Shown: positions 9,963 to 54,657 of the stretch, piece by piece
Numbering within the stretch: position 1 is the first letter of the stretch
How the letters are laid out: each line of letters starts with the position of its first letter
Source: Myxococcota bacterium
GTDB taxonomy: Bacteria > Myxococcota > JACRCW01
Direction: 5' to 3'
Assembly (NCBI GenBank): GCA_040752415.1
Contig: JBFMGU010000003.1
Span: 1-64,000, forward strand
DNA: 64,000 nucleotides
The notes under the pieces: model-generated
Told to the model about the DNA's origin: nothing
Databases searched by the model: none
The model's input: only the letters and a program-made list of their open reading frames with translations
Position numbers and translations under genes: made by a program

Positions 9963-10511
9963 ATGGGGCGCCTGCTGTTGTGTGCAGCGCTGCTGGTGTC
10001 CGTGGGTGGTTGCTCGCTGCTGCCGTGGAATCGCGCGGCGGAGGAACGACGTCGTCAGGCCCGCAATGATGCGCTGGTCCGCAAGATGGACCACGTGGTG
10101 CGCTCCTACCTGGGCACGCGCTACCGCCTGGGCGGCAACAGTCACAAGGGCATTGATTGCTCCGGCCTGCTGGTGCGCATCTATGAGGCCGTGGGCATCC
10201 GGCTGCCGCGCACCGCCTCCGCGCAGTACGACGTGGGTCGCGGGGCGGACTCCGACGAGCTCCAGTACGGCGACATCCTCTTCTTCAACACCAAGCCGCT
10301 GGGAAGACGGACGTCGTGCCTGTTCCCCGGGCCCATGGCCCGCGCGGATGTGCCGCTCATCTATGGGTTGACCCACAGCGGGATGTACGTGGGGCGCGGC
10401 CGGTTCGTGCACGCTTCGTCCAGCAGCGGCGTGAGCTATGCCCACCTGGATGACGAGTACTGGCAGGACCGGTTCATCGGCGCTCGTCGGATCCTGGATG
10501 ATTTTGACTGA
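9963..10511 (+). CDS. NlpC/P60 (C40) peptidoglycan endopeptidase lipoprotein
   Basis: Lipobox LVSVGGCS. Catalytic Cys context GIDCSGLLVRIY and His context LTHSGMYVGRGRFVHAS are typical of NlpC/P60. Confidence 0.75.
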   Translation: MGRLLLCAALLVSVGGCSLLPWNRAAEERRRQARNDALVRKMDHVVRSYLGTRYRLGGNSHKGIDCSGLLVRIYEAVGIRLPRTASAQYDVGRGADSDELQYGDILFFNTKPLGRRTSCLFPGPMARADVPLIYGLTHSGMYVGRGRFVHASSSSGVSYAHLDDEYWQDRFIGARRILDDFD

Positions 10512-10619
10512 TCGGACTTGCGCGTGGGCTGGGCCCTTGCCAAATGGCCGCGGCTGATTTTTCTTGTTTCCCCACACCGGGCCTTGGTAGCCCGGGGGCC
10601 TTCCGAGTGGGACCACGGT

Positions 10620-10960
10620 TCATGATTCGTCTGGCGCGTTGGGTTCGACTGCTGTGCGTGGGGGCCATGTTGTGCGCCCCGGGCGCGGCGTTGGCCCGTG
10701 CGCAGACGGACCTGGCCGAGCAGTCATCGCCGGGACAGCGCCTGCTCGAGGAAGAAGTCCACCAGCACGTGGAGCGTCGGCCGGTGGCCCTGCGACACCG
10801 CGGGGTGGTGCCCACGCCCCGGGTTGGCGTCCACCACAAGCGCATCGTTGACCAGCAACCGGTGCATCCCCTGCTGGAACGGGGAGTGGCCGCGCGCCAG
10901 CGCTCCGTCCAGCTGCCGCGGCGCACCGCGCCCCCTCCAGACGTAGAGAAACGCGCCTGA
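10620..10960 (+). CDS. hypothetical small secreted protein (weak call)
   Basis: Internal start MIRLARWVRLLCVGAMLCAPGAALARAQ looks like a signal peptide. No recognisable domain. It overlaps a long antisense artefact ORF. Confidence 0.2.
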
Positions 10961-11144
10961 CGGCGTGAAGGCCGGCTGATTCCCTGACGAGCCCCGGGTT
11001 CGGGCTGCGCATTGTTGCGTGGTCCGCCCGGCCCGTCACCGGCCCACCCATCCACACGCAGAACTGCAACCTCTGTCGTCGTCGGTGATGCCGCCGCACG
11101 CGCTGCGTGTGCCCGGTGTCTCCGAAAGCGCGGGCTGAACCACC

Positions 11145-12755
11145 ATGTCCAACACCTCCTCCGACGTCACCGAGCTGGTCCCGGCGCCCGTCGCGCATGA
11201 CCCCCCTCTCGACGTCACCGAGCCGCCCCGCGTGGTTCCGGTGCTCCTCCTTGCCGTGGTGTCCACCGGACTGCTGGGCGCCTCCAGCCTGGCGCTGGCG
11301 CCGCTGAGCGCGCTGCTGGCCACCCCGTTCCTGGGCGGGCTCCTCGTGCTGCTGGCGCCGGTCTCGCACCGCGGGGTGCTGCGCGCGCTCACACTGGTCA
11401 CGTCGGTGGTGACGCTGGTGCGGGCCTGGTCGCTGCTGGGGCCCTTTGACGGGTCGGTGGCCAGCCTGCAGCTGGTGGAAAGGCACCCGTGGGCCCCGGA
11501 AATGGGGATGTCCTACGTGCTGGGTGTCGACGGGCTCTCGTTCCCGCTGGTGCTCCTGACCACGCTGGTCAGCACGGTGGCCACGGTGGCCTCCGCCAAC
11601 CTCGGCGACCGGCCGCGCGGATTCTGGGGCTGCCTGCTGCTGCTGGAGGCGGCCATGCTCGGCGTGTTCACCGCGCAGGACTGGTTCCTCTTCTACAGCT
11701 TCTGGGAGATCACGCTCATCCCGCTGTTCCTGCTCGTCGGAGTGTGGGGCGGGGCGGGTCGTCACCATGCGGCCATGAGCTTCTTCCTCTACACGCTGGC
11801 CGGCTCCATCTTCATGCTGCTCGCCATGCTCGCGGCGCACGACGCCACGCCGGGCCACACCTTTGACATGGCGGAGATGGCGCACGCCGCGCGCAGCTGG
11901 CCGCTCAACTTCCAGGAGATGGTGCTGCTGGGTTTCCTCCTCGGCTTCGCGGTGAAGATCCCGGTCTTCCCGCTGCACGGGTGGCTGCCGCTGGCGCACG
12001 TGGAAGCTCCGGTGCCGGTCAGCATGCTGCTCTCCGCGGTGCTCCTGAAGATGGGCTCCTACGGGCTGCTGCGCGTTGGCGTCATGGTCCCCGCGGCGCT
12101 GGACGCGTTCGCGCCGGTGCTGATGGGCCTGGCGCTGGTCAACATCATCTACGGCGCGCTCATGAGCTGGCGCCAGAACGATCTCAAGAGCGCGGTGGCG
12201 TACTCGTCGGTGAGCCACATGGGCTTCGTGGTGCTGGGCATCTCCGCCGCCAACCTCACCGGGCTCGTCGGCGCGACGATGCAGATGCTCACCCACGGCA
12301 TCATCACCGCCGGGCTCTTCATGATGGTGGGCGCGCTGTATCACCGCACGCACACGCGACAGCTCACCGAGTACGGCGGCCTGGGTCCGCGGGTGCCCGT
12401 GCTGGCCGCGTTCACGACGGTGGCGGTGCTGGGCTCCATGGGCCTGCCCGGCCTGGCCGGTTTCGTCAGTGAGCTGCACACGCTCGTCGGCGGGTTCGAG
12501 CGCTGGGGCATGGTGGCGGTGCTGGCGTGCGTGGGCGTGATCATCACCGGCGCCACGTGCATCCGCATCCTGGCCCGCGCCTTCATGGGTCCGGCCAACC
12601 CACGCCTCCCGCACCTGGGCGACGCGAACGTCTGGGAGTGGGTGGGCATGGCGCCGTTGGTGCTGCTCGTCGTGGGACTGGGGCTGCAGCCGGCGCTGGC
12701 CCTGGACCTCATGTCCGCCACGCTGGGCCGCATGGCCGCGGCGCTCAACCGATGA
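11145..12755 (+). CDS. complex-I antiporter-like subunit, NuoM/ND4 family (Proton_antipo_M)
   Basis: 536 aa polytopic membrane protein. ND4/NuoM hallmarks are present: LGVDGLSFPLVLLTTLV, FLFYSFWEITLIPLFLLVGVWGG, FFLYTLAGSIFMLLAML, AYSSVSHMGFVVLGI. Confidence 0.75.
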   Translation: MSNTSSDVTELVPAPVAHDPPLDVTEPPRVVPVLLLAVVSTGLLGASSLALAPLSALLATPFLGGLLVLLAPVSHRGVLRALTLVTSVVTLVRAWSLLGPFDGSVASLQLVERHPWAPEMGMSYVLGVDGLSFPLVLLTTLVSTVATVASANLGDRPRGFWGCLLLLEAAMLGVFTAQDWFLFYSFWEITLIPLFLLVGVWGGAGRHHAAMSFFLYTLAGSIFMLLAMLAAHDATPGHTFDMAEMAHAARSWPLNFQEMVLLGFLLGFAVKIPVFPLHGWLPLAHVEAPVPVSMLLSAVLLKMGSYGLLRVGVMVPAALDAFAPVLMGLALVNIIYGALMSWRQNDLKSAVAYSSVSHMGFVVLGISAANLTGLVGATMQMLTHGIITAGLFMMVGALYHRTHTRQLTEYGGLGPRVPVLAAFTTVAVLGSMGLPGLAGFVSELHTLVGGFERWGMVAVLACVGVIITGATCIRILARAFMGPANPRLPHLGDANVWEWVGMAPLVLLVVGLGLQPALALDLMSATLGRMAAALNR

Positions 12756-12765
12756 CGGAGTCACC

Positions 12766-15700
12766 ATGAGCACGCACAACCACGCGCACGAAACTCCCCG
12801 GGACCCCCGCGAGCGCCTCCGTCACGAGGTGGAGCACGCCAGTCATCTGCTCGCGGCGCAGGGGCCCATCCGCACCTTTGTGCACCACAATACGCTGCAT
12901 GGCCTGCAACACCTGCACTTCGACGACGCCATCCGGGAAGCGGAGCGCGTGCTGGGAGGGCAGGGTTATCTGCCGGTGGAGACGTTCCGGCGCCTGCACG
13001 TCGAGGGACGTATCCCGCGGGACCAGCTGCTGCGCGCGCTGGAGGAGCTGTCCGGCCTGCCCCTGACCGAGAAGCCAGCGGCCAACGTCACCGTGCGCGA
13101 CGTGGTGATGGCCCACCTGCTCCACGGCGTGGACCGGGCGTCTCCGTCGGAGTTGGCGTGGGAGATCGAGGGGCGGGGTGCGTTGGGCCGCTTGCGCGGG
13201 GACCTGCCGGCGGACGTGCGCGCGCAGTTGCTGCGGAAGGCCCACGACGAGCTGGAGCGTGGAGTTGCGCGCATTGGCGTGGAGTGGACCATCTCGGACT
13301 GGCTGGGCTCCATCACCGGTCTCGACGTGGCCGGGCATGTCACACGGGTTGCCGCGAGCGGAGGAGACGCCGGTGGCGCGGAACGCGCGTTGCGCGAGCT
13401 GGGGATTCCCGTCGAAAAGCGGGCGGGATACGTCGAGCTTGCGCAGCGTCGATGTCCTTCCGGACCGGACGCGTGGCTGCACCTGGAGGCGTTGACCGTG
13501 TCCGCGCTGGCGGAACGGCATTGGAGCGTGGAGGGAAATCTTCCGTCGCTGCAGCGCCACTTCCGAGAGCACGTGGAGGCCTATGCCGCCGAGACGCTTT
13601 GGCGCGCCTGCCTGGGCATCTGGGCCCTCGAGGACCCCACGTCTCCGACGGACGCCGCGTTGTCCCCGCGCGACCCGCACGGAGGCGTGGCCGAGCAGGC
13701 GTGGATCCATGCGGAGGAGATGGAGGCGGCCGGCGGTCCCGCGGTCACGTTGACGTCGTCACAGGTGGCCACCGTCCAGGCGCTGCTGACGCGAGCGGAC
13801 GAGGGTGACCACGCACGCCTGTGCTGGACCATCCAGCGCGAGTTGCGGGCAGCGGAGCTGGGGCGCGCAGGCTTGGAAGCGCTGCGCACGTTGCTCTCGC
13901 TCCACGCCGATGAAGTGGCTGCCAGGTTGCAGGAAGAGCTGCGCACGCAGGACCCGCACGCGCGCATGCTCGCCCACGCCCACGACGTCGCGACGAGCCT
14001 CATGGACGGACTGGCACACGGTTCCACCCACCGTGACGTTCTCCTGGCGGTCACCGGCGTCGACGTCAACGAGCGCGTGCATCCACGCATGTTGGAGCTG
14101 TGCTCCGCGTTCCTCGACGGAGGGATGGCCACCTGGCGCATGCCCGGTCGGACGCTCGGCCTCTACGACGCGTGGCGGAACCATGCTTCGCATGTGCTCG
14201 ATCTCGGAAATCCCGACGACCAGGAGCTGAAGTCGGCGCTCGCGGAGCTTCCCGTGCTGCCCGTGGACGCGGTGTTGCAGTCGCTGCGCGCGCTTGGTGT
14301 CGAGGAGGAGGCGTGGGGAGGGTACCTGGGACGCATCCTGCTGCAGCTGCCGGGATGGGGCGGGATGATCAGCTGGATGGAGCGCTCCGGACGACGGGAA
14401 CGCTCCGTGGACCTGGTGCAATTCCTCGCGGTGCGACTGTTCCTCGAACGGATGGAGATTGCGCGGCTGGCGCGTCGGACGTGGCACGTGGAGGGGACCA
14501 CCGAGGGCCTGCGCCAGTATTTCCTGACCCACCCCGAGGAGATCGTGGTCCGGCGGGAGCTGTTCTCCGGTTCCCTCCCCGAGCACCTGGCGGAAACCGC
14601 GCGACACCTCTGCCACGACGAGAATCCCCGACACCGCGCCGGTTGGACCTCGCTCGCGAATCTCCTGTGGCACCACCACGAGATCACCGGCGGCATCTCC
14701 GCGCATGACCACGCCTGGCGTCTCTTCCACCTCTCGCAGCTGCTGGGCCTGGGCGCCGAGGAGGTCCGTGCGCTGACCCGCGACGACGCCACGGCGCTGC
14801 TGAGGGTGCTGGACGGGTTTCCCGTCGAGAAGCACCGGCGCATCTGGCAGGCCGCGTATGAAAGCACCTACCGCGACCAGGTCCTGGACGCGCTCTGGCA
14901 GAACCGCGGGCGTGGACGTTGGAAGGACCGCCCGACGAGACCGCGCGCGCAGATTGCTTTCTGCATCGATGACCGGGAGGAGTCGTTCCGTCGTCACGTG
15001 GAGGAGATTGACCCGGAGTACGAGACGCTGGGCGTGGCCGGGTTCTTTGGCGTGGCCGTGCACTACCAGGGTCTCGACGACGAGGCGGCCAGCGCGCGCT
15101 GTCCCCTGGGTGTGAACCCGCAGCACCACGTGCGCGAGGTGGCGCAGGAGGATGCGGGGCGACAGATGGCGCGTCATCGCTCGGAGTCACGCTGGCAGCA
15201 GGCGGTTTCCGACGTGTTGTGGGAGCTGCGTCGCAGCCTGGTGGGCAGCTACTTCCTGGTGGACCTGGTGGGGGCGGTCTCGGCGGTGCCCTTGCTTGGG
15301 CGCGTGGCGTTCCCCGGCGCGTTTGACGACGTGGCGAACCGCGTCCGTAGCCCCATGAACACCGCCGTTCCCACCCGCCTCACCGTGGACGCGCGGGAGG
15401 TGGACGGACGCCGCAGCGGGTTCACCACCGCCGAGCAGGCCGACCGCGTGGAAGCCACGTTGCGCAACATGGGATTGACGTCGGGATTCGGGGCGGTGGT
15501 GCTGCTGTTTGGTCACGGATCCATCAGCGTCAACAATCCACACCTTTCCGCGTACGACTGCGGCGCGTGCGGCGGCAACCACGGTGGCCCCAACGCACGA
15601 CTCTTCGCCGCCATGGCCAATGCGCCGGAGGTGCGCGCGGTGCTGGCCACACGCGGCATCGTGATTCCCGACGACACCTGGTTCGTGGGCGCGGAGCACA

Positions 15701-16524
15701 ACACCTGCAATGAGCTGCTCACGTACTACGACACCGACGTCATTCCCGCGTCCAACAAGCAGGCCTTCGCGGAGCTGGTGAAGGACATGGAGGAGGCGCG
15801 TCGACGTTCCGCGCACGAGCGGGCTCGGCGTTTCCGGTCCGCGCCGCGCAATCCCACGCCGGAGCGCGCGTTGCGGCACGTGCAGGAGCGCGCGGTGGAC
15901 CTCAGCCAGGCGCGACCGGAGCTGGGACACGCCACCAACGCCTGCGCCGTCGTGGGGCGGCGGTCCCTGACGCGCGGGGTGTTCCTGGATCGCCGCGCGT
16001 TCCTCATCTCCTACGACGCCACGCAGGACCCCACGGGGAGCATCCTGGAGCGCATCCTGATGGCGGTGGGGCCGGTGGGGGCGGGCATCAACCTGGAATA
16101 CTACTTCTCCACCGTCGACAACCTGCGCTTCGGCTGCGGCTCCAAGGTGGTGCACAACGTCAACGGGCTGCTCGGCGTGATGGACGGTCCGCGCAGCGAC
16201 CTGCGTACCGGGCTCCCCAAGCAGATGGTCGAGATCCACGAGCCCATGCGGCTGCAGATGATCGTCGAGGCCAGCACGGAAACCCTCGGCGCCATCTACG
16301 GACGACAGAAGCCGTTGCAGGAGCTCATTGGCAACGCGTGGGTGCACCTGGTGGCCGTGGACCCGCACAGCGGGGAGGCCTCGGTGTTCACGCCTGGCCG
16401 GGGATTCGTGCCCTGGACGCCGCCGGGGAGCGCGCTCCCAACGGTCAAGGCCTCGTCGGACTGGTACCGCGAAAAAGCGGATTTCATTCCTCCCGCGCTG
16501 ATCCAGGGGGACCGCCATGCTTGA
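12766..16524 (+). CDS. DUF2309/DabA-like protein (putative beta-CA-like CO2-hydrating subunit of a DAB-type complex), unusually long (1252 aa)
   Basis: N-terminal AAQGPIRTFVHHNTLHGLQH matches the conserved DabA/UPF0753 N-terminus. Internal FCIDDREESFRRH (CxDxR) and GHGSISVNNPHLSAYDCGACGGNHGGPNAR (His/Cys) resemble the Zn-ligand motifs reported for DabA. It starts 11 nt after the upstream ND4-like gene, and its 3' end overlaps the next gene by 8 nt. Confidence 0.8.
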   Translation: MSTHNHAHETPRDPRERLRHEVEHASHLLAAQGPIRTFVHHNTLHGLQHLHFDDAIREAERVLGGQGYLPVETFRRLHVEGRIPRDQLLRALEELSGLPLTEKPAANVTVRDVVMAHLLHGVDRASPSELAWEIEGRGALGRLRGDLPADVRAQLLRKAHDELERGVARIGVEWTISDWLGSITGLDVAGHVTRVAASGGDAGGAERALRELGIPVEKRAGYVELAQRRCPSGPDAWLHLEALTVSALAERHWSVEGNLPSLQRHFREHVEAYAAETLWRACLGIWALEDPTSPTDAALSPRDPHGGVAEQAWIHAEEMEAAGGPAVTLTSSQVATVQALLTRADEGDHARLCWTIQRELRAAELGRAGLEALRTLLSLHADEVAARLQEELRTQDPHARMLAHAHDVATSLMDGLAHGSTHRDVLLAVTGVDVNERVHPRMLELCSAFLDGGMATWRMPGRTLGLYDAWRNHASHVLDLGNPDDQELKSALAELPVLPVDAVLQSLRALGVEEEAWGGYLGRILLQLPGWGGMISWMERSGRRERSVDLVQFLAVRLFLERMEIARLARRTWHVEGTTEGLRQYFLTHPEEIVVRRELFSGSLPEHLAETARHLCHDENPRHRAGWTSLANLLWHHHEITGGISAHDHAWRLFHLSQLLGLGAEEVRALTRDDATALLRVLDGFPVEKHRRIWQAAYESTYRDQVLDALWQNRGRGRWKDRPTRPRAQIAFCIDDREESFRRHVEEIDPEYETLGVAGFFGVAVHYQGLDDEAASARCPLGVNPQHHVREVAQEDAGRQMARHRSESRWQQAVSDVLWELRRSLVGSYFLVDLVGAVSAVPLLGRVAFPGAFDDVANRVRSPMNTAVPTRLTVDAREVDGRRSGFTTAEQADRVEATLRNMGLTSGFGAVVLLFGHGSISVNNPHLSAYDCGACGGNHGGPNARLFAAMANAPEVRAVLATRGIVIPDDTWFVGAEHNTCNELLTYYDTDVIPASNKQAFAELVKDMEEARRRSAHERARRFRSAPRNPTPERALRHVQERAVDLSQARPELGHATNACAVVGRRSLTRGVFLDRRAFLISYDATQDPTGSILERILMAVGPVGAGINLEYYFSTVDNLRFGCGSKVVHNVNGLLGVMDGPRSDLRTGLPKQMVEIHEPMRLQMIVEASTETLGAIYGRQKPLQELIGNAWVHLVAVDPHSGEASVFTPGRGFVPWTPPGSALPTVKASSDWYREKADFIPPALIQGDRHA

Positions 16525-18553
16525 TGTCGTCATCCTGCTTGTTCCCGCGCTCCCGCTGCTGGCGGCCGCGTTGCTCGGCGTGTTGTGGGCGTCCGGTCGC
16601 ACGTTGGCGGAACGGACCGTCAGCCGGATGGTGTGTGGCGCCATCGGCCTCTCGCTCGTCGGGTCGGCGTTTGCGTTGACCCAGGTGCTCACGCTCCATC
16701 ACGGCGTGGAGGTGCGCGCGTGGCGCTGGCTGGAGAGTGGTCGCTTCACCGTGGACGTGGCGTTCCTCGTCGACCCGCTCTCGGGCGTCATGATGACGCT
16801 GGTTTCCCTGCTGTGCCTGGTGGCGTCGTGGTTTGCACGCAACTACATGCACGCGGAGGCGGGGTTCACGCGCTTCTTCGCCCTGGTGAGCCTGTTTGCC
16901 GGCGCCATGCTGGTGCTGGTGATGGCCAACAACTACGTCGTCATGTTCGCCGGGTGGGAGCTGGCGGGCATCTGCTCGTACCTGCTCATTGGCTACCAGC
17001 ATGAGCGCACCTCCGCGGTGCAGGGCGCCACGAGGGCATTCATCACCAAGCGCGTGGCGGAAGTGGCCCTGGTGTTGGGCATCCTGCTCGTGTTCGTGCA
17101 GTTCGGGACGGTGGACTACACGCGGGTGTTCGGTGCGGTGGGTGGATTGTCGACGGAGATGGCCAACGTCATGGCGCTCTGTCTGTTCCTGGGCGCCGCG
17201 GGGAAGGCCGCGCAGCTTCCGTTCGCCACGTGGTTGCCACGCGCCATGGAGGGGCCCACGCCGTCGAGCGCGCTCTTCTACGGCGGCACCATGGTCTCCG
17301 CGGGGGTGTACCTGGTGATCCGCAGCCAGCCCATCTTCAACGCCGCGCCCAACGTGCTGGTGATGGTGGCCATGGTGGGCGTGCTCACCGCCGTGTACGG
17401 CGCGCTCGTCGGGTGGGTGCAGACGGACGTGAAGAGCATCCTGGCGCATTCCGTCATGACGCAGCTGGGGCTCATGTTCCTGGCGTGCGGGCTGGGGGCG
17501 TACACCGCGGCGGTGCATCACCTGGTGGCCCACGCCGTCTTCAGCACGCTGCTCTTCCTGACCGCGCCCTCCATCCTCCTGCGCCTGCGCGACGCGAGCC
17601 CGCGTGAACACGGCGACCGCCACCAGATGACGACGCCACAGTGGCTCTTCATCCTCGGCGTGGCGGGCCTGATGGCCATGCCGTTCGTATCCGGCTGGTG
17701 GGAGACCGACGAGCGCGGCGCGGCATTCGAGGACGCCGGTCACGTGCTGCTGGCTTTTGGCGCGAAGGCGGCGTTCGGCACGGTGGTGCTCTCGTCGCGC
17801 GCGGTGCAACGCGCCTTCGGTGGTCCGCTGGGATCCTCGGTGCTGCGCGTCATGGTGATCAGTCTGGTCGCCGTGGGGCTCGCGGTGGCCGTGCAGCAGA
17901 CGGTGCTCGCCGGTGGGATCGACCAGGGCTGGTTCCAGCGTTTCATGGGCGGGCCGGATGTGAAGCACGGCGACGTGGCCCCGCTGCTGCTCCACGCCTT
18001 GATGCTGGTGCTGCTCGTGGCGCTTACCGTGGGCTGGCTCGGTGCGCTGTACTTTGACCGGCAGCAGCCCGAGGTCCACGGCGCGCTGATGGTCCGGTTG
18101 CGCACGTTGCACGCGGTCGCGTTGCGACGGTTCCATCTCGAGGATCTGCAGGAACGCTGGTTGGTGGCGCCGTTGCTGCGGCTGGGGCGCTGGCTGGACC
18201 GCGTGGATCGTCGGGTCATTGACCGCGCCATGGGGACGCCGGGGCCCGCGCAGCAGGTGCGCAGCGTGCTGGCGCAGTGGGAGGAGCACGTGGCCACCGG
18301 CGGTGCGGTGTCGTCGGAGGGACGGGGCCTGGGACCGGCGCGGGGGCTCATGGGGACGCTGGCGGAGGTTGCTGCGGCGTTCTCGTCGGCGTTGGAGCGC
18401 TACGTCATTGGAATGCTGGTGGGGCGGGGCGTGCCGCAGACCAGTGGCCTGCTGGGGCGGGCGCTCAACGGGCTGGAGCACGTGGTGGGCAAACCCGTGG
18501 TGCTGGGGGCCGTCGTGGCGGCTGGAGCCCTGATGCTGTTGGGGGTGCGTTGA
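16517..18553 (+). CDS. complex-I antiporter-like subunit, NuoL/ND5/MnhA family (DabB-like)
   Basis: 678 aa. ND5/NuoL-type motifs: FAGWELAGICSYLLIGY, AGKAAQLPFATWLPRAMEGPTPSSALFYGGTMVSAGVYLVIRS, SILAHSVMTQLGLMF. Long C-terminal extension typical of L-type subunits. Overlaps DabA-like stop. Confidence 0.8.
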   Translation: MLDVVILLVPALPLLAAALLGVLWASGRTLAERTVSRMVCGAIGLSLVGSAFALTQVLTLHHGVEVRAWRWLESGRFTVDVAFLVDPLSGVMMTLVSLLCLVASWFARNYMHAEAGFTRFFALVSLFAGAMLVLVMANNYVVMFAGWELAGICSYLLIGYQHERTSAVQGATRAFITKRVAEVALVLGILLVFVQFGTVDYTRVFGAVGGLSTEMANVMALCLFLGAAGKAAQLPFATWLPRAMEGPTPSSALFYGGTMVSAGVYLVIRSQPIFNAAPNVLVMVAMVGVLTAVYGALVGWVQTDVKSILAHSVMTQLGLMFLACGLGAYTAAVHHLVAHAVFSTLLFLTAPSILLRLRDASPREHGDRHQMTTPQWLFILGVAGLMAMPFVSGWWETDERGAAFEDAGHVLLAFGAKAAFGTVVLSSRAVQRAFGGPLGSSVLRVMVISLVAVGLAVAVQQTVLAGGIDQGWFQRFMGGPDVKHGDVAPLLLHALMLVLLVALTVGWLGALYFDRQQPEVHGALMVRLRTLHAVALRRFHLEDLQERWLVAPLLRLGRWLDRVDRRVIDRAMGTPGPAQQVRSVLAQWEEHVATGGAVSSEGRGLGPARGLMGTLAEVAAAFSSALERYVIGMLVGRGVPQTSGLLGRALNGLEHVVGKPVVLGAVVAAGALMLLGVR

Positions 18554-20082
18554 TGGAAACGTTTCCGCTGTTGAGCGCGTTGCTGTTCCTTCCGTTGGTG
18601 GCGTCGGTGACCATGACCGCGCTGCGCGACGAACGGGTGGCGCGCCTGGCCGCGTGGGCCTTCGCTGGCGTCGAGCTGTTGCTGGCCGGTGTGATGATCC
18701 TGCGCTTCCAGTCTGGTGTTCCAGGGCCGCAGCTCGTCGAGAACGGGTTCCTCATCCCGGGTCTGGGAGTGCAGTACCACCTCGGTGTCGACGGAATCAG
18801 CGCGTTGTTCGTCCCGGTGGCGGCGCTGATGACCCTGCTCATGGTCCTCCACACCGACGAGCAGGCAGGCGGCGCGCGGCAGAACCTGGCGTCCATCTTC
18901 GCCATGGAGGCCAGCACGGTGGGCGTGCTCGTCTCGTTGGACCTGGGGCTGTGGTGGCTGTTCCTCACGCTGGAGGTGTGGCCCGCGTACCTGGTGATCC
19001 GACGCTGGGGCACCGGGGAACGTCGTCACGAGGTGGCGCGCAGGTTCGCGGCGTTCATGGCGGTCAGCGTGGTGACCTCGTTGGCGGCCGTGGTCTGGCT
19101 CCGCGTGCAGGGCGCGGGACGGCCGTTTCCCCTCAGCGTGACGTCGTGGATGCAGGATCCGCTGGCCGCCGCGGCGCAGGAGCCGGTCTTCCTCCTGTTG
19201 CTGTTGGCGTTGGCCATCCGCATCCCCGTCTTCCCGTTCCACACGTGGCTTCCCCAGGTGGTCGAGCACGGTCCGCTCGTCGGGGTGACGGTGTTCTTCC
19301 TGGGGCTCAAGGTGGGCGCGTACTCACTGCTCCGCGTGGTCATCCCGGTGCTCCCCGACGCCGCGCAGCACTGGGCGTGGTTGATGGCCGGCCTGGGCGT
19401 GGCGGGGCTGTTGCACGGCGGGCTGATTGCCATGGTGGAGCCGAATCTCCGTCGCATGCTGGCGTTCGCGAGCGTGAGTCACGTCGGCGGAGTGCTGCTG
19501 GGAATTGCTTCCCTCACCATGGCGGGGTTCCAGGGCGCGTTGCTGCAGATGCTGAGCCTGGGCGTCTGCGTGGTGTGCCTGTTCTTCCTCGCGGGTTTCC
19601 TCCAGCGGCGGACCGGCGCCGTCGACGCGCCGTCCCTCGGCGGACTGGTGCACCGCGTGCCGCGGCTCTCGGTGGTCTTCCTCGTCATGGCCATGGCGTG
19701 CGTGGGCATGCCGGGCACCAGCGGTTTCAACGGGGAGCACCTCATCATGCTGGGCGCGCTGCGCGCGAACTGGCTCTGGGGCCTGGCCGCGGGTGTGGGA
19801 ACGTTGCTGAGCGCCGCGTACTTCCTCATCTACTTCCAGCGCGCCTTCATCCGCGCGCCCGTCGTCAACACGGCTTCTCCCATCTCCGACCTGACCGCGC
19901 GGGAGTGGCTCACCTGTGGAACGTTGTGCGCGCTGGTGTTCTGGTGCGGTCTCTTCACCGGTCCGTTCCTCGACGTGATGAACGGTTCACTCAAGTCGCT
20001 GGCCCACAAGGTCGACCGTCGCGCGCACACCACCGTGACCACGCTGGAGCAGCAGCCGGGGAGCAACCATGCCCTTGAATGA
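18553..20082 (+). CDS. complex-I antiporter-like subunit, NuoM/ND4 family
   Basis: Start METFPLLSALLFLPLVASV shares the A of the upstream TGA (TGATG). Motifs LGVDGISALFVPVAALMTLLMVL, WWLFLTLEVWPAYLV, FPFHTWLPQVVEHGP. Confidence 0.75.
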   Translation: METFPLLSALLFLPLVASVTMTALRDERVARLAAWAFAGVELLLAGVMILRFQSGVPGPQLVENGFLIPGLGVQYHLGVDGISALFVPVAALMTLLMVLHTDEQAGGARQNLASIFAMEASTVGVLVSLDLGLWWLFLTLEVWPAYLVIRRWGTGERRHEVARRFAAFMAVSVVTSLAAVVWLRVQGAGRPFPLSVTSWMQDPLAAAAQEPVFLLLLLALAIRIPVFPFHTWLPQVVEHGPLVGVTVFFLGLKVGAYSLLRVVIPVLPDAAQHWAWLMAGLGVAGLLHGGLIAMVEPNLRRMLAFASVSHVGGVLLGIASLTMAGFQGALLQMLSLGVCVVCLFFLAGFLQRRTGAVDAPSLGGLVHRVPRLSVVFLVMAMACVGMPGTSGFNGEHLIMLGALRANWLWGLAAGVGTLLSAAYFLIYFQRAFIRAPVVNTASPISDLTAREWLTCGTLCALVFWCGLFTGPFLDVMNGSLKSLAHKVDRRAHTTVTTLEQQPGSNHALE

Positions 20083-21586
20083 GATCATGGCGTTGCAGCA
20101 GGTGGGCTTCCCCATCCTGACCACGCTCATCCTGCTCCCGGTGGCGGCGATCTTCGCATTGCTGGTGGCGCCGGTGAGCTGGTCGCGGAGGGTGGGTTAC
20201 GTGGCCGCGGCGCTGGAGCTGGCGTTGTCCGTGCTCCTGGTGGCGCGCTTCCGGCCCGGCGTGGCGGACATGCAATTCGTGGAGCGCGCCAGCTGGATTC
20301 CCACGCTGGGAGTGAACTGGCACGTCGGTGTCGACGGCATCAGCCTGCTGTTCATCCCGCTGACCTGTTTGCTGACGCTGCTGGTGCTCATCCAGCGCGC
20401 GCCCTCCGCCAAGGTCCACCCGCGCGGGTGGCTGGCGTGCATGTTGGGGTTGCAGGCGGCCACCGTCGGGGTGTTCGCAGCGCTGGACCTGATCCTGTTC
20501 TTCATCTTCTGGGAGCTGACGCTCATCCCCACGTTCTTCCTCGTGTCCCGTTGGGGCTTCGGTCCGCATCGACGGTTCGCCGCCGTGAAATACGTGGTGT
20601 TCATGCTTGTGGGCTCGGCGCCGTTGCTGGTAGCCAACATCATCCTGGGCACCCACGCGGCGCGCATTACCGGCAACTTCGTCGGAGCGTTCGACCTCAC
20701 CGCGCTCCTCGCCACGCCGCTTCCCGTCGAGCTGCAGACCCAGGTGCTCTTCCTGCTGGTGCTGGGGTTCGCCGTGAAGGCGCCCATGTTCCCGTTCCAC
20801 ACCTGGCTGCCCGCGCTGCTGCTGGAGGGGCCCGTCGGGATCGGGGTGTTCATGGTGGGTGTGAAGCTCGGCATCTACGGGCTCGTCCGCCTCGCCATTC
20901 CGCTCGCTCCCGACGCGGCTCGCGAATGGGCCACGGCGGGCATGGCCTGGGGGCTGGTGGGCGTCCTCTATGGCGCGCTCGTGGCGCTGAGCCAGGACAA
21001 CCTCCGTCGGATGCTGGCGTTTCTCGGCGTCAGTCACGTGGGGTTGATGGTCATGGGCCTGTTCTCGCTCAATGTGCAGGGCGTGCAGGGCGCGCTGCTG
21101 GTGATGCTCAACATGGGGATCACCTCCACGGGACTGATGTTCCTCCTCGGCGCGCTCTACGCGCGCACCGGCTCGTCGGACCTGACGGCGCTGGGCGGAT
21201 TGGCGCGACATGCTCCCATGCTCACCACCGCCTTCTTCGTCCTGGCGCTGGGCTCCATGGGTGTCCCGGGAACCAGCGGGTTCAGCAGCGAGCAGGTGCT
21301 GCTGTTGGGCGCATTCAAGGCCCACGGGGGCTGGGCGGCGGCCGCGCTCGTCGGTGCGCTGGTGGGTGCCGCGGCGCTCATCTGGGCCTTCCAACGCGCC
21401 TTCGTCGGTCCCGCCAGCCCACGCCGCGTCGACGATCTGCTCCCCCGCGAGAAGGCCGTGGCCGCCGTTCTCGTCGTGCTCGTGCTTGCCCTGGGGCTCC
21501 ACCCGCGACCGGTGATGGAGACCAGTCGCGCCGCCGTGGATGCCTTCCACCAACGTCTCAACCTTCGCGTCACCGCGTCACGCTGA
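20069..21586 (+). CDS. complex-I antiporter-like subunit, NuoN/NuoM (ND2/ND4) family
   Basis: 505 aa. Motifs VGVDGISLLFIPLTCLLTLLVL, ILFFIFWELTLIPTFFLVSRWG, MFPFHTWLPALLLEGPVGIGVF. Overlaps upstream gene by 14 nt. Confidence 0.75.
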   Translation: MPLNEIMALQQVGFPILTTLILLPVAAIFALLVAPVSWSRRVGYVAAALELALSVLLVARFRPGVADMQFVERASWIPTLGVNWHVGVDGISLLFIPLTCLLTLLVLIQRAPSAKVHPRGWLACMLGLQAATVGVFAALDLILFFIFWELTLIPTFFLVSRWGFGPHRRFAAVKYVVFMLVGSAPLLVANIILGTHAARITGNFVGAFDLTALLATPLPVELQTQVLFLLVLGFAVKAPMFPFHTWLPALLLEGPVGIGVFMVGVKLGIYGLVRLAIPLAPDAAREWATAGMAWGLVGVLYGALVALSQDNLRRMLAFLGVSHVGLMVMGLFSLNVQGVQGALLVMLNMGITSTGLMFLLGALYARTGSSDLTALGGLARHAPMLTTAFFVLALGSMGVPGTSGFSSEQVLLLGAFKAHGGWAAAALVGALVGAAALIWAFQRAFVGPASPRRVDDLLPREKAVAAVLVVLVLALGLHPRPVMETSRAAVDAFHQRLNLRVTASR

Positions 21587-21602
21587 ACCGTCAGAGGTCC
21601 CC

Positions 21603-23234
21603 ATGCAGACCGATTCCGTCGTCAAGGAAAAGCCCGTCGCCAAGAACGTTGCACCGCCGCCCGCGCAGCCCGCGTCGGCGACGCCCAAACCGGACGCGCC
21701 GGACCTGCGTCCCACCGCGAACATCAAGTACGACCTGCCCGCGGGCCTGGTGGTCTTCCTGGTGGCGCTGCCGCTTTGCCTGGGCATTGCGCTGGCCTCC
21801 AACGCGCCGCTGTTCTCCGGCGTCATCGCGGGGATTGTGGGTGGCCTGGTGGTCCCGTTCATCAGCGGCTCACCGCTCAGCGTCAGCGGTCCCGCGGCGG
21901 GACTGGCGGCGATTGTCTCCATGGGCATTGCGCAGGTGGGCGGCTTCCCGCAGTTCCTGGCGGCGGTGCTCCTGGGCGGCGTCATCCAGATCCTGCTCGG
22001 CGCGTTCCGGCTGGGCGCGGTGGCGTATTTCATCCCCTCGTCGGTGATCAAGGGCATGCTCACCGCCATTGGCCTGCTCCTCATCTTCAAGCAGCTCCCG
22101 CACGCCATCGGTTATGACGTCGACAACTTTGCCTCCGTGAAGTTCAAGGCCGCCGACGGCAACACCTTCAGCGTGCTGCTGGACTCGGTGAAGACCATGG
22201 AGTGGGGCGCGTTCCTCATCAGCGCGGTCTCGCTCGTCATCCTGGCGGGTTGGGAGCACACGCCGCTCAAGAAGATCTCGTTCCTCCCGTCGGCACTGGT
22301 GGCGGTCGTTGTTGGCTCGCTCATCAATGAGGGACTGGTGTCGTCGGGCTCCGCGCTGGCGTTGGGGAGCACGCACCTGGTGGACCTTCCGCCCATGGAC
22401 GGCGTGGGTGGCTTCGTGGCGCAGCTGCAGATGCCGCAGTGGAGCGCGTTCACCAACCCGCAGGTGTGGGTCATGGGGCTCACGCTTGGCATCGTGGCGT
22501 CGTTGGAGACGCTGCTCAGCATTGAGGCGGTGGACAAGCTGGACCCGTTCCACCGCAAGAGCCCGCTCAACCGTGAGCTGCTGGCGCAGGGCGCGGCCAA
22601 CGCCACCTCCGGTCTCATCGGCGGGTTGCCCATCACCGCCGTCATCGTGCGCAGCAGCGCCAACGTGAATGCCGGTGCGCGCACGCAGGCCTCCGCCATC
22701 TTCCACGGTGTGTTCCTGTTCCTCGCGGTGGTATTCGCCGGGAGCCTGTTGGTGCACATCCCGCTGGCGTGCCTGGCCTCCATCCTGCTCATGACCGGCT
22801 ACAAGCTGGCCAAGCCCGCCATGTTCCGCGCCATGTTCCAGCTGGGTTGGGGTCAGTTCATCCCGTTCATGGCCACCATCGTCGCCATTGTGTTCACCGA
22901 CCTGCTGCGCGGCATTGGCGTGGGCTTGGTGGTGGGCCTGGCGTTCGTGATCCGCGCCAACATCCGCGACGCGTTCACCGTCAAGAAGCACGGCTCCAGC
23001 TATCTCATCCTGCTGCGCAAGGACGTGTTCTTCTACAACAAGGCCGTGCTCATCCAGGCGCTGGAGCGCATCCCGTCGGGCGCCAGCGTGATTGTCGACG
23101 GAGGCAGCACCGAGTTCATTGACATGGACATCTACGAGGCGGTGCTGGCCTTCAAGGCAGGCGCCGCGGCGCGCAACATCAACGTGGAGCTGCGGCTGCG
23201 CGCGCCCGGCGTCATGGCGCCCGCGGCGCATTGA
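21603..23234 (+). CDS. SulP-family anion transporter with C-terminal STAS domain (BicA/sulfate-permease-like)
   Basis: Start MQTDSVVKEK is preceded by GAGG 7 nt upstream. The listed ORF 21540.. overlaps the previous gene and is less likely. SulP hallmarks: LVVFLVALPLCLGIALASNAPLFSGVIAGIVGGLV.. Multiple TM segments. C-terminal STAS-like fold (YLILLRKDVFFYNKAVLIQALERIPSGASVIVDGGSTEFIDMDIYEAVLAF). Confidence 0.8.
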   Translation: MQTDSVVKEKPVAKNVAPPPAQPASATPKPDAPDLRPTANIKYDLPAGLVVFLVALPLCLGIALASNAPLFSGVIAGIVGGLVVPFISGSPLSVSGPAAGLAAIVSMGIAQVGGFPQFLAAVLLGGVIQILLGAFRLGAVAYFIPSSVIKGMLTAIGLLLIFKQLPHAIGYDVDNFASVKFKAADGNTFSVLLDSVKTMEWGAFLISAVSLVILAGWEHTPLKKISFLPSALVAVVVGSLINEGLVSSGSALALGSTHLVDLPPMDGVGGFVAQLQMPQWSAFTNPQVWVMGLTLGIVASLETLLSIEAVDKLDPFHRKSPLNRELLAQGAANATSGLIGGLPITAVIVRSSANVNAGARTQASAIFHGVFLFLAVVFAGSLLVHIPLACLASILLMTGYKLAKPAMFRAMFQLGWGQFIPFMATIVAIVFTDLLRGIGVGLVVGLAFVIRANIRDAFTVKKHGSSYLILLRKDVFFYNKAVLIQALERIPSGASVIVDGGSTEFIDMDIYEAVLAFKAGAAARNINVELRLRAPGVMAPAAH

Positions 23235-23237
23235 GTC

Positions 23238-23620
23238 CCCCCAAGAAGGAAGTCAGGAGTCAGAAGTCAGAAGATGGTCCCGCGACGACGACGGGTAGGC
23301 ATCTTCTGAAGGGGCGTTGGAGAAGTTCCGACAAGGGCGTCACAACGGAGAGTGTGGTCCTGCCCTGCTTGTTGCGGCGGGCGAGCCCGCACCTGGCAAT
23401 GTGGCGGCGCCAAGCGCGTCACGAAGCGGGTGGGCGGAAGCAGCGGCGCCCTGGAGTGCGGTGCGAACCGAGCGAGCGGTCGACGACGTGAAGCACCGCC
23501 CTGGATCGGGCCGCTCCGACGGCGCATCCGACAGACCCTCAGAAGGTGCTCTCCCGTCGTCGTCACGGGACCAACCTTCTGACTTCTGACTCCTGACTCC
23601 TGACTTCCTTTTGGGATCCC
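23238..23620. repeat. long imperfect palindrome: ~75-bp inverted-repeat arms (GGAAGTCAGGAGTCAGAAGTCAGAAG...GGTCCCGCGACGACGACGGG...) separated by ~235 bp
   Basis: Left arm 23238-23312 and right arm 23545-23620 are reverse complements with only a few mismatches. The outer parts carry a tandem GTCAGAA/GTCAGGA motif. A nested second inverted pair (GTCCCGCGACGACGACGGG / CCCGTCGTCGTCACGGGAC) sits inside. Intergenic between SulP and a hypothetical gene. Confidence 0.7.
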
Positions 23621-23674
23621 CGACAACCCATGACCCACATTGCGACCGCAGATCGCGACCTCTAACGTCAGGGC

Positions 23675-24226
23675 GTGCCGCGCCCGTCCATTCCCCGCGC
23701 CGTGCCTCCCGCCACGCCCGCGGGTGTCATCTCCGCGCGGCCCGGATTGCGTGGTCACGACGGGCGTTGGCCGCGTCGCATCCTGGGCCTGATGCTGTTG
23801 CTGGCGTGCATCCCCGCCACCTGCATGGCGGTGGTGGACCGCCTGTTTCCCACCGAGGGGAGCTTCGCCAACCTGGCGGCCATGCGGGAGCGCGGCTGGC
23901 ACGTGCCCACGTTCGTCCCGCCTGTGGCGACGGAGATCCGCGTGTGGAGCCATCCGCCGGCGCGCACGTGGGCCATGCGGTTCCGTTTCCCGACGGGGAA
24001 TCCCTGGATCTCGTCGCACGGCGTGGAGGTGCCCACCGCGGAGGTGCCCTACCGTCTGCCCACGGAGCAGGTTCCCCCGTGGTGGCCCCCGGAGCTCGAC
24101 GGCGCACGCGCGGTGGGAGCGCAGCCGGGTGTGACGTACGTGCGGTTCCACCGGTCGCGGAATTCCTCGTTCTTCTGCGCGGTCACGGCGGAATCCGTGG
24201 CGCACTGCTGGCACCGGCGACACTGA
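23675..24226 (+). CDS. hypothetical membrane protein
   Basis: 183 aa. One clear TM helix (ILGLMLLLACIPATCMAVV). No recognisable domain. Codon usage is consistent with neighbours. Confidence 0.3.
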   Translation: MPRPSIPRAVPPATPAGVISARPGLRGHDGRWPRRILGLMLLLACIPATCMAVVDRLFPTEGSFANLAAMRERGWHVPTFVPPVATEIRVWSHPPARTWAMRFRFPTGNPWISSHGVEVPTAEVPYRLPTEQVPPWWPPELDGARAVGAQPGVTYVRFHRSRNSSFFCAVTAESVAHCWHRRH

Positions 24227-24287
24227 GTTGCACGGCTGGTTTCCCCGGGGCGGTCCTGCTAGGAGGGGGCCCGGAACCGAGCAGCCC

Positions 24288-24653
24288 ATGCCCAATCCCG
24301 CCGACATTGCCAAAGTGCGTGCGTTCATTTCCCGCGAGCTGGACACCATCAGTGAGTACGTCGCCATGGCGGAGGCCGCCGAGGACCCCGTGGTGAAGGA
24401 GCTCTTCATCCACGTGGCGCGCGAGGAGAAGGAGCACGTGGCGGAGGGCATGCGCCTGTTGCACGCGCTGGATCCGGATCAGGCCAGCGTGGAGTCGGCG
24501 CACGCGGAGGCGCTGCTGGGCGGGGCGGCGGGCTCGTCGTTGGGGCCGTTGGCCACGCCCGTGTCGTCGGCCGCGTCCACGCCCGCTTCCGCGCCGCCGG
24601 ATGGCCCCGGGAAAGGCACCTTCACCGTAGGCAACCTCCGACGGGGCGCCTGA
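24288..24653 (+). CDS. encapsulin cargo: ferritin-like (EncFtn/rubrerythrin-like) protein with C-terminal targeting peptide
   Basis: Start MPNPADIAK is preceded by AGGAGGGGG. ExxH ferritin-like helices (VAREEKEHVAEGMRLLHALD). Disordered Ala/Ser/Pro linker, then C-terminal ...GKGTFTVGNLRRGA, resembling the TVGSLR-type encapsulin cargo-loading peptide. Immediately upstream of an encapsulin shell gene. Confidence 0.7.
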   Translation: MPNPADIAKVRAFISRELDTISEYVAMAEAAEDPVVKELFIHVAREEKEHVAEGMRLLHALDPDQASVESAHAEALLGGAAGSSLGPLATPVSSAASTPASAPPDGPGKGTFTVGNLRRGA

Positions 24654-39453: not shown

Positions 39454-39600
39454 TACACCTCGAACACAACTTGACATGCCTGCCGGAGGGGGCCCCCCGC
39501 GCCCGCCGGCTCTTCCGCGCTCCCCGCGGACACGCCCTCCCAACCCAACCCACGCATTGCGCTGCGCCGACGTTGCACGGTCAAGCACCCAAGGGGACGT
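39441..39600 (+). repeat. dispersed repeat, copy C (core GGTGTAATACACC; CCCTCCCAACCCAACCCACGCATTGCGCTGCGCCG block)
   Basis: Shares the palindromic core, the TTGACATGCC segment, GGGGGCCCCCC, and the CCCTCCCAACCCAACCCACGCA..GCGCTGCGCCG block with copies A/B at 26.96-27.39 kb. Located in the 5' leader of the pyrC-pyrB fusion gene. Confidence 0.6.
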
Positions 39601-39692
39601 GGAAGTCGTCACGTACAGACTTCCGGACAAACGGAGTGGTCACAGCAGGCATTGTCGCGCGGAACATGATCCGGGTAACAAGCGCGCCGCCC

Positions 39693-54140: not shown

Positions 54141-54152
54141 GACTTCCCCTCC

Positions 54153-54572: not shown

Positions 54573-54657
54573 GATCGCTCCGTTGCGTTGGCGGCCAAGA
54601 CTGCCCCGTGCCGCCACGTCCTGGCCACCGGCGCCCGACCACCCTACAAACCTGCTC

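Follow-up and report, generated by a model that had tools for sequence, protein, structure and literature searches.

The window analysed here is a stretch of 64,000 nucleotides (nt) from a Myxococcota bacterium (assembly GCA_040752415.1, contig JBFMGU010000003.1, positions 1 to 64,000), in which six genes on the plus strand (11145-23234) bring together a DabA protein, four antiporter-like membrane subunits and an anion permease, in the order NuoM-type ‘a’, DabA, NuoL-type ‘L’, NuoM-type ‘b’, NuoM-type ‘c’ and SulP. The reading favored here, with a probability of about 0.55, is that the cluster would encode a stand-alone vectorial carbonic anhydrase, driven by the proton-motive force and belonging to the DAB (DAC/MpsAB) family, with an expanded antiporter arm. 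The genomic findings stand firmly; the function of the cluster is inferred from them.

In the proposed machine, DabA would be a cytoplasmic zinc β-carbonic-anhydrase-like head that is docked on L via a membrane hairpin, where Asp833 would give the acidic group that is missing from transmembrane helix 12 (TM12) of L, like Glu444 in DabA2/DabB2. The long lateral element and the terminal helix TM16 of L would clamp the three NuoM-type subunits into a linear, complex-I-like arm, with ‘a’ and ‘c’ acting as proton channels and ‘b’ as a degenerate connector in a DabC-like role. Protons would enter down the proton-motive force through ‘a’ and ‘c’ (and through L together with the DabA hairpin), and the resulting changes would travel via the central charged axis as far as the interface of L with DabA, where they would gate the buried active site; CO2 would then be hydrated one way only, presumably at more than one proton per CO2, and HCO3- released to the cytoplasm. 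SulP may be a co-expressed transporter for bicarbonate (or another anion) that serves the same inorganic-carbon economy. The template is the proton-motive-force-driven conformational gating that was proposed from cryo-electron microscopy of DAB1 and DAB2 (bioRxiv 10.64898/2026.05.01.722082; PMC13144422).

An earlier reading of the window, made from the letters and the translations alone (the sequence-only reading), had described six tightly packed plus-strand genes of these broad families, and this was upheld by the Pfam and NCBIfam profile scans through which families were assigned to the open reading frames (ORFs) of the window, and by the junctions as measured. The genes for ‘a’ and DabA are 10 nt apart, and the next three junctions, up to ‘c’, overlap by 8, 1 (TGATG) and 14 nt; ‘c’ and SulP are separated by 16 nt if SulP starts at ATG 21603, or overlap by 47 nt with the start at 21540. 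The genes are treated as one functional unit because of these overlaps (1-14 nt) and gaps (10-16 nt), because the order is kept across lineages, and because all five of the long NuoL-like homologues sampled are linked to a DabA (see below).

The head and the antiporter-like arm

The earlier assignment of the second gene to the DabA-like DUF2309 family was borne out by a match to PF10070 that covers the model in full (Table 1). The protein shares 100% identity with NCBI entry MEW5847317.1, which bears the name “putative inorganic carbon transporter subunit DabA”, and matches the solved DabA2 (9rd0_A) with a phmmer E of 1.2e-77, the C-terminal half aligning at E 1.7e-73. The zinc ligands C733, H917 and C932 and the Asp-Arg dyad D735/R737 are invariant in the homologue alignment and fall in CxDxR, GHGS and DCGAC motifs, the same motifs that hold C449, D451, R453, H694 and C709 in the DabA of Thermocrinis albus (bioRxiv 10.64898/2026.05.01.722082). 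As for the lid motif, the window DabA has GVAGFFG (the DAB form being GI(A/G)GFFG). Hydropathy revealed a single strongly hydrophobic stretch, the hairpin, in which D833 is the aligned counterpart of DabA2 Glu444, a residue that stands in for K399/D400 of NuoL in the DAB2 structure and is essential (PMC13144422).

Two other motifs depart from the DAB type. The second reads NNPHLSAYDCGACGG in the window DabA, compared to NNPYESALDCGACGG in the DAB type, and the third, DW(xxx)RPEWGL, reads DLSQARPELGH, in which the first Trp is replaced by Leu and the active-site Leu by His1055, so that the DAB-specific RPEWGL with its active-site Leu is absent. This Leu (L825 in T. albus) was proposed to block the binding of HCO3-, and CsoSCA has a proton-shuttle His in its place (bioRxiv 10.64898/2026.05.01.722082). 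A motif census found the His signature in 73 of the sequences scanned, and across this clade it co-varies with NNPH..DCGACGG and with C.D[ED]REE (CIDDREE in the window), whereas classic DabAs keep RPEWGL together with NNPY..ALDCGACGG and CIDVRSE. Because RPELGH with His1055 and the co-varying motifs differ from the RPEWGL type, the window protein is assigned, by its motifs, to a DabA subfamily distinct from the characterised DabA1 and DabA2.

The window DabA is also a long form, carrying an insert of ~340 amino acids (aa) that is soluble and all-alpha, with about 19 helices and no transmembrane segment; a structural match to the insert was sought and none was found. Residues ~571-681 make up another segment of the long form, which is shorter. 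Between the two long-form-specific segments, residues 238-271 and 557-590 match over 34 residues with 41% identity (E 1e-4 for the pair); this one 34-aa match is suggestive of an origin of the insert by internal duplication, which it does not establish.

The L subunit, identical to NCBI MEW5847318.1 (annotated “NADH-quinone oxidoreductase subunit L”), scored 242 bits against NdhF1, 241 against Nqo12 and 229 against NuoL, and only 106 against DabB2 among the solved chains. After the E. coli residue numbering had been verified on the K-12 sequences, the channel residues were mapped, and L was found to keep H335, H339 and the two ion pairs of NuoL (E148/R179 and E182/K230); these pairs are missing from the classic DabB1 of locus L017 (F139, R227), and DabB2 was likewise reported to have none (PMC13144422). 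The TM12 Lys is missing from L, as throughout the L family, which fits with the DabA hairpin supplying that function. Two positions set the window copy apart: residue 343 (K342 in E. coli NuoL) is a Ser that is unique among 60 relatives, where 56 have Lys and three Arg, and the position of E. coli NuoL D178 is occupied by Glu, with Asp in 59 of the 60.

The C-terminus of L continues after TM15 (489-512) with ~150 aa of non-membrane sequence, compared to ~80 aa in E. coli NuoL, as judged from hydropathy. AlphaFold2 placed lateral helices at 524-571, 584-594, 611-636 and 645-657, with low confidence over 580-650, and TM16 at 660-676; the model had a predicted template-modelling score (pTM) of 0.73, and its best Foldseek matches were full-length NuoL, ND5 and NdhF chains. 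In relatives that encode four other antiporter-like genes, the lateral segment has 202-244 aa, and in complex I variants the lateral helix lengthens by 26 aa per added pumping subunit (PMC9040806, citing Chadwick 2018). Since the ion pairs are kept, the lateral element and TM16 are present and the model is NuoL-like, L appears to be built for a multi-subunit chain; the lateral element and TM16 would make sense only if L embraces neighbouring subunits.

The three NuoM-type subunits differ in how much of the proton channel they retain. Subunit ‘a’ scored 338 bits against NdhD1 and 308 against NuoM, and its channel set, mapped on E. coli NuoM, is complete (E188, K271, H278, K302, H358, H384 and E443); an additional hydrophobic helix may be present near its N-terminus (residues ~31-50). 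Subunit ‘c’, with NuoM as its best solved chain (239 bits), also has the complete set (E149, K174, K237, H244, K266, H323 and E408). In ‘b’, for which NuoM is again best (202 bits, versus about 67 for NuoN), T139 takes the position of the TM5 Glu and R223 that of the TM7 Lys, with K253, H310 and E395 retained, and the TM5 Glu is gone (Val or Thr) in all orthologous ‘b’ subunits mapped. By analogy, the degenerate ‘b’ recalls DabC of DAB1, which sits at the NuoM position with hydrophobic residues replacing the channel residues (bioRxiv 10.64898/2026.05.01.722082). A profile of ‘b’ orthologues compared with the classic DabC (L017 3033-3824) gave an hhalign probability of 7% and E 0.005, over the TM11-12 motif alone; this match, not significant alone, agrees with the published likeness of DabC to half a NuoM, and the idea that DabC is a remnant of ‘b’ is not claimed.

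The sequence-only reading had seen the L-M-N order of the complex I membrane arm in these genes. Since the first, fourth and fifth genes all score best against NuoM/ND4/NdhD chains, the order has to be corrected to M-DabA-L-M-M, and there is no NuoN/ND2-type subunit in the cluster, the NuoN chains giving 46-67 bits against 202-308 for NuoM. All Mrp NCBIfam models remained far under their cutoffs, and the scores of the window subunits for NuoL/NuoM are 2-3 times those for MrpA/MrpD.

Relatives of the cluster and the direction of the reaction

The core a-DabA-L-b-c, usually with SulP and a further subunit ‘d’, recurs in metagenome-assembled genomes (MAGs) of at least eight lineages (Rubrobacter, Actinomycetota, Gemmatimonadaceae, Chloroflexota, Vicinamibacterales, Gammaproteobacteria, Nitrotoga and Polyangiaceae). 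The arrangement goes far beyond what chance would give, the same gene order being found on more than 12 independent contigs that represent several phyla. The closest DabA homologues (1224-1311 aa) have 43-49% identity at 99% query coverage, and their contigs have the order SulP-a-DabA-L-b-c-d.

A scan of one genome per GTDB species with one peptide pattern from the DabA insert returned six loci, of which five were further MAGs with the same order (one Rubrobacter, one Rubrobacteraceae, two Gemmatimonadaceae and one Chloroflexota) and the sixth was an Actinomycetota contig (L002) that was already known. A profile search with the insert among 1.84 billion representatives gave 19 matches at E<1e-30. 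The search with L, in turn, gave more than 120 clusters of NuoL-like proteins of 700-860 aa, and all five loci sampled from these (a Vicinamibacterales MAG, an ENA metagenome contig, a Polyangiaceae MAG, a Gammaproteobacteria MAG and a ‘Candidatus (Ca.) Nitrotoga’ MAG) have the NuoL-like gene directly 3′ of dabA, followed by two or three PF00361 genes. Given these numbers, and a Polyangiaceae core whose DabA has 1058 aa, the insert was dropped as a marker of the architecture: it is unreliable, and searches with it understate the family.

In a neighbour-joining tree of 44 sequences, which has no support values, the antiporter-like subunits fall into five orthogroups, a, L, b, c and d, with ‘b’ and ‘c’ as sister paralogues, ‘a’ beside E. 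coli NuoM and the classic DabB1 grouping with the L clade. The phylogenetic placement called for by the sequence-only reading was thereby achieved at the level of orthogroups, the deep placement relative to NuoL, DabB and MrpA not being settled by this tree. Subunit ‘d’, of the MrpD/MbhH type, is present in most relatives and is missing, besides from the window, in the Gammaproteobacteria and Nitrotoga MAG clusters. The Polyangiaceae MAG has the same five-gene core without SulP, and its ‘b’ groups with that of the window. Shorter DabAs of the same clade (Archangium, 1123 aa; Aquisphaera, 1039 aa) are followed by a truncated L of 462-475 aa without the lateral element and then by one degenerate M-type subunit; SulP or SbtA lies near these loci, SbtA being near the Aquisphaera relative.

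The resemblance to NuoL and NuoM could also mean that the cluster supplies an exchangeable distal module for the respiratory complex I of the host, similar to NDH-1MS, in which the L- and M-type subunits would replace or extend NuoL/NuoM on NuoN-NuoH and redox pumping would pull the hydration. This would account for the scores of L and ‘a’, which are best against NdhF1, NdhD1 and NuoL/NuoM (229-338 bits, versus 106 for DabB2), for the NCBIfam NuoL and NuoM subfamily cutoffs being exceeded, for the inter-subunit ion pairs kept in L, and for the absence of an N-type or MrpD-type terminal subunit from the window cluster. Most relatives, however, have their own MrpD-type ‘d’ to close the arm, no nuo core genes were found among the ORFs scanned in the 64-kb window, and known DabA complexes need no redox partners (bioRxiv 10.64898/2026.05.01.722082; PMC13144422). 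In the tree it is DabB1 and not E. coli NuoL that lies with the L clade, and an N+M+M+M+L arm would be larger than in any known complex I; docking on complex I is thus considered unlikely.

If the cluster works on its own, the active complex might still consist of DabA and L alone, as a conventional DAB in which the other PF00361 genes and SulP merely share the operon. DabAB heterodimers do suffice in the characterised systems (bioRxiv 10.1101/476713), ‘b’ is degenerate and the accessory content varies, with ‘d’ missing from the window and SulP from Polyangiaceae. The strict a-DabA-L-b-c order in at least eight lineages, the gene junctions that overlap or nearly do so, the inter-subunit ion pairs, and the presence in L of TM16 and of a lateral element whose length is greater in loci with more subunit genes, all argue for a larger assembly and make so small a complex very improbable.

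The last gene of the cluster is a clear SulP, its PF00916 match spanning profile positions 2-375 of 380. The SulP half of the original SulP-STAS call is therefore sound, but a STAS domain (PF01740) was not detected, either with the whole protein at E 0.01 or with the last 114 aa at E 0.5. Orthologous SulPs at loci L014 and L016 carry weak-to-clear STAS matches, and a degenerate STAS, of which the C-terminal ~100 aa would no longer be recognisable, is possible. The suggested kinship with cyanobacterial BicA was not sustained: the TIGR00815, DauA and BicA models are all under cutoff, the BicA equivalog NF050096 gave 124 bits against a cutoff of 880, so that the protein is not a BicA orthologue, and among solved relatives the fumarate transporter SLC26Dg (102 bits) is ahead of BicA (77 bits). 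A SulP gene flanks the DabA cluster at L001-L004, L007-L010, L014 and L016; in the window it stands at the 3′ end and not, as in the order SulP-a-DabA-L-b-c-d, at the 5′ end.

The link to inorganic carbon is reinforced by this SulP synteny and by the SbtA, β-carbonic anhydrase (β-CA) and CBS-pair genes near relatives. A canonical β-CA (PF00484) adjoins the cluster at L014 (929-1585, minus strand) and at L016 (3302-3952, minus strand), where it forms a divergent unit with SulP-STAS and a helix-turn-helix regulator. A CBS-pair protein of 131-133 aa is encoded just 5′ of the SulP gene at L001 (362-757), L007 (3596-3991), L010 (5930-6325) and L014 (2410-2811), and a further CBS gene lies near the L003 cluster (14712-15110, minus strand), with none in the window; this protein may be an adenylate-sensing regulator of the system.

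A further alternative is a system for pH or ion homeostasis, or one that runs in reverse, rather than one for carbon accumulation. In one variant, CO2 hydration would supply cytoplasmic H+ and SulP would export HCO3-; in the other, HCO3- imported by SulP would be dehydrated by DabA with the consumption of H+; in either case the antiporter-like subunits would, in the manner of Mrp, translocate H+ (or Na+/K+). The replacement of Leu by His restores the hydrogen-bond donor or proton shuttle of reversible β-CAs and of CsoSCA (bioRxiv 10.64898/2026.05.01.722082), most relatives have an MrpD-type ‘d’, a canonical β-CA stands beside L014 and L016, the SulP is not a BicA orthologue and both its direction and its substrate are unassigned, and many of the hosts are soil, desert or heterotrophic lineages without an adjacent RuBisCO. 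On the other hand, no MrpB/C/E/F/G-type small subunits were found at the cluster, and the hairpin, its acidic residue and the NNP..DCGACGG loop are elements of proton-driven hydration in the solved DABs. The sequence-only reading had held that the machine could equally run in reverse; a reverse mode survives as the weaker reading, as the free energy in the CO2/HCO3- disequilibrium would be too small for several protons to be pumped against a proton-motive force of normal size, and homeostasis or reversal is regarded as rather unlikely. A bolder proposal, which appears quite unlikely, is a stand-alone, complex-I-type, reversible machine with a carbonic-anhydrase head that would couple at least three H+ to each CO2, could turn a HCO3-/CO2 disequilibrium (from SulP-imported HCO3-, with the restored His) into ion-motive force, and would be ancestral to DabAB/DabABC.

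Several points weigh against the favored reading of a proton-driven, one-way vectorial carbonic anhydrase. All DABs tested experimentally are of the RPEWGL type, and His1055 in place of the DAB1 Leu resembles the reversible β-CAs and CsoSCA. A ratio of at least three protons to each CO2 would be far above the thermodynamic need. The β-CA beside two related clusters, if cytoplasmic and co-expressed, would dissipate an HCO3- pool kept away from equilibrium. The L and M-type subunits are much nearer to NuoL/NuoM/NdhF/NdhD than to DabB2, which fits docking on a respiratory complex equally well. Finally, the window L is the shortest among the 60 relatives and the core lacks ‘d’, so the window copy is atypical and may be a reduced version of the family.

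Layout and surroundings of the locus

The coding frames were picked, region by region, by a filter on the G+C content of third codon positions (GC3), the window having ~68% G+C. The features of the cluster are collected in Table 1.

Table 1. Positions of the genes of the DabA cluster and of the features within them, numbered from the first nucleotide of the window
Feature	Position	Strand	Description
g1 ‘a’	11145..12755	+	NuoM/NdhD-type antiporter-like subunit, 536 aa; PF00361 E 3.2e-70, TIGR01972 NuoM 499 bits
g2 DabA	12766..16524	+	long-form DabA, 1252 aa; PF10070 E 1.6e-253, 844 bits, model covered in full
DabA insert	13051..14067	+	residues ~96-434, peculiar to long-form DabA
DabA membrane hairpin (“elbow”/“finger” motif)	15232..15324	+	residues 823-853, with D833; hydropathy
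His1055 codon (RPELGH)	15928..15930	+	alignment to DabA2
g3 ‘L’	16517..18553	+	NuoL-type subunit, 678 aa; PF00662 and PF00361, TIGR01974 NuoL 415 bits
L Ser343 codon	17543-17545	+	g3 residue 343
L C-terminal lateral element, then TM16	18032..18544	+	residues ~506-655, anchor helix ~656-676; hydropathy, AlphaFold2
g4 ‘b’	18553..20082	+	degenerate NuoM-type subunit, 509 aa; PF00361 E 1.6e-45
g5 ‘c’	20069..21586	+	NuoM-type subunit, 505 aa; PF00361 E 6.3e-55, TIGR01972 431 bits
g6 SulP	21603..23234	+	anion permease, 543 aa from ATG 21603 (other start 21540); PF00916 E 9.5e-54

The start codon of g1 is the first after an in-frame stop at 11136, and the ATG of g4 overlaps the stop codon of g3. A listed ORF at 18654-20078 was discarded as g4, since its frame is wrong and neither Pfam nor NCBIfam gave a match. 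Among the GC3-supported ORFs scanned in the window, no nuoA-K, Mrp small-subunit, RuBisCO or carboxysome genes were found, which agrees with the earlier exclusion of respiratory complex I and of a canonical Mrp antiporter. Four of the ORFs (119-676, 739-1467, 27414-28013 on the minus strand and 62940-63884 on the minus strand) had no Pfam match, and the ORF at 54153-54755 (minus strand) was left outside the family scan. Small flanking ORFs (10544-10960, 23675-24226 and others) were considered as hidden NuoJ/K or Mrp small subunits and rejected; they have no Pfam match, are not membrane-like, and show poor coding statistics or signal-peptide-like sequence, and the packed ORFs of the cluster leave no room between them for small Mrp genes. 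A scan of 10400-24300 gave no promoter-like sites and five terminator-like sites where 7.2 were expected, by which co-transcription is neither supported nor opposed.

The cluster is preceded on its 5′ side by genes for TPR proteins and an NlpC/P60 peptidase. Directly 3′ lies a gene for an EncFtn-like/rubrerythrin-like protein (24228-24653, plus strand, E 4.5e-5), followed by an encapsulin shell protein (Linocin_M18; 24710-25594, plus strand, E 6e-64) and then by purA (25631-26923). The window is rich in purine and pyrimidine genes, with Sua5/TsaC at 54088-55650, and contains three fusions on the plus strand: a dihydroorotase-like amidohydrolase with aspartate carbamoyltransferase (39471-41756, 761 aa), PurS with PurL (44341-47208, 955 aa), and a PurN-like formyltransferase with MGS and PurH domains (50379-52487, 702 aa). 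Some steps related to these nucleotide-biosynthesis genes use bicarbonate; a tie to the cluster is a passing thought.

Significance and comparison with known systems

The DAB structures of 2026 left open how proton flow is coupled to the buried site, and the variant described here offers a natural test case, with several complete channels, a NuoL with ion pairs and lateral helix, and a His at the position linked to directionality; since it differs from the known systems in these features, the H+/CO2 stoichiometry and the role of the His position become directly testable. It would also be an instance of the antiporter arm of complex I and Mrp being reused in modular fashion with a non-redox head. 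NCBI and JGI name DabA-linked L subunits “NADH-quinone oxidoreductase subunit L”, and the M-type genes of the window, which score above the cutoff of the NCBIfam NuoM subfamily, would likewise be named NuoM; the number of complex I genes in these MAG lineages is thus probably overestimated, and metabolic reconstructions of soil and MAG lineages may book parts for carbon uptake as respiratory complex I. The occurrence of the family in Rubrobacter, Gemmatimonadaceae, Chloroflexota, Acidobacteriota, Nitrotoga and Myxococcota points to an inorganic-carbon strategy in oligotrophic and soil bacteria, and the cluster is a possible part for the engineering of CO2 uptake.

As judged from its gene content, the cluster is not complex I (no N-type subunit, core or peripheral arm), not Mrp (no small subunits) and not NDH-1MS (no CupA). 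With Mrp (CPA3) it shares a redox-independent set of several PF00361 subunits, and the relatives carry the MrpD-type ‘d’, but the window has neither MrpB/C/E/F/G genes nor the MrpA C-terminal domain. NDH-1MS and MS′ (NdhF3/NdhD3/CupA/CupS and NdhF4/NdhD4/CupB) have a comparable zinc-containing, CO2-hydrating head on NuoL/NuoM-type subunits, and it is the cyanobacterial NdhD1 and NdhF1 that g1 and g3 match best among the solved chains. CupA, however, is unrelated to DabA and has no match in the cluster, the ferredoxin-plastoquinone redox drive through a full complex I core is not at this locus, and L scored 193 bits against the NdhF3 model TIGR01960 (ndhF3_CO2), under its cutoff of 588.7.

Similar in the make-up of the arm are the ‘2M’ complex I of Nitrospira and Complex_I_3 of ‘Ca. 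Manganitrophaceae’, which also have duplicated NuoM-type subunits and a lengthened lateral helix of NuoL/MrpD (PMC9040806). The five pumping subunits of Complex_I_3 were called unique by its authors (PMC9040806), and the same count of antiporter-like subunits is found in the common seven-gene form of the DabA-cluster family. These variants are redox enzymes with NuoA-K, whereas in the window the sole non-antiporter partner is carbonic-anhydrase-like and there is no N-type subunit.

That the module was “undescribed”, as the sequence-only reading put it, is true in part. Literature searches on multi-antiporter DAB systems found only the gene-neighbourhood note of Klimchuk et al. (2017; COGNAT ‘clade C’, PMC5700660), in which ybcC (COG3002) lies 5′ of a nuoL homologue, often with NuoM (COG1008) and SulP (COG0659) neighbours, and in which more membrane subunits were suggested to mean more ions translocated. 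That survey, of 711 genomes, preceded the assignment of DabA as a carbonic anhydrase and proposed an exergonic reaction that drives ion export; it is without the orthogroups, the degenerate ‘b’, the extended lateral helix, the DabA insert and the Leu-to-His change. Probably most of clade C consists of the two-antiporter forms seen in Archangium and Aquisphaera. No paper was found on the five- to seven-gene architecture, the orthogroups, the extended lateral element, the insert or the Leu-to-His signature.

The nearest functional relatives would be DAB2 of Halothiobacillus neapolitanus (PDB 9rd0) and DAB1 of T. albus and H. neapolitanus, with which the window cluster shares PF10070, the zinc ligands, the Asp-Arg dyad, the lid motif, the NNP..DCGACGG loop, the membrane hairpin with an acidic residue, and an adjacent NuoL-related partner without the TM12 Lys; DAB1 further has a third, non-pumping membrane subunit at the NuoM position, DabC, comparable to ‘b’. 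In the recent DAB papers the complex is a DabA-DabB heterodimer, with DabC optional, that is, one PF00361 subunit and at most a small non-Pfam one besides it, whereas four PF00361 genes stand in the window and five in most relatives; the claim that the cluster differs from the described DabAB and DabABC systems therefore holds, and in its NuoL-like partner as well. The window L has the make-up of a complete NuoL, its ion pairs, long lateral element and TM16 included; His takes the place of the active-site Leu, and CIDDREE that of CIDVRSE; DabA has an extra helical domain of ~340 aa; and dabA lies 5′ of the NuoL-like gene instead of downstream of it. The classic DAB1 locus (L017) has the order DabB-DabC-DabA-PII with LysR, RuBisCO and carboxysome genes alongside, a PII/LysR/carboxysome context that is absent from the window, where SulP is linked.

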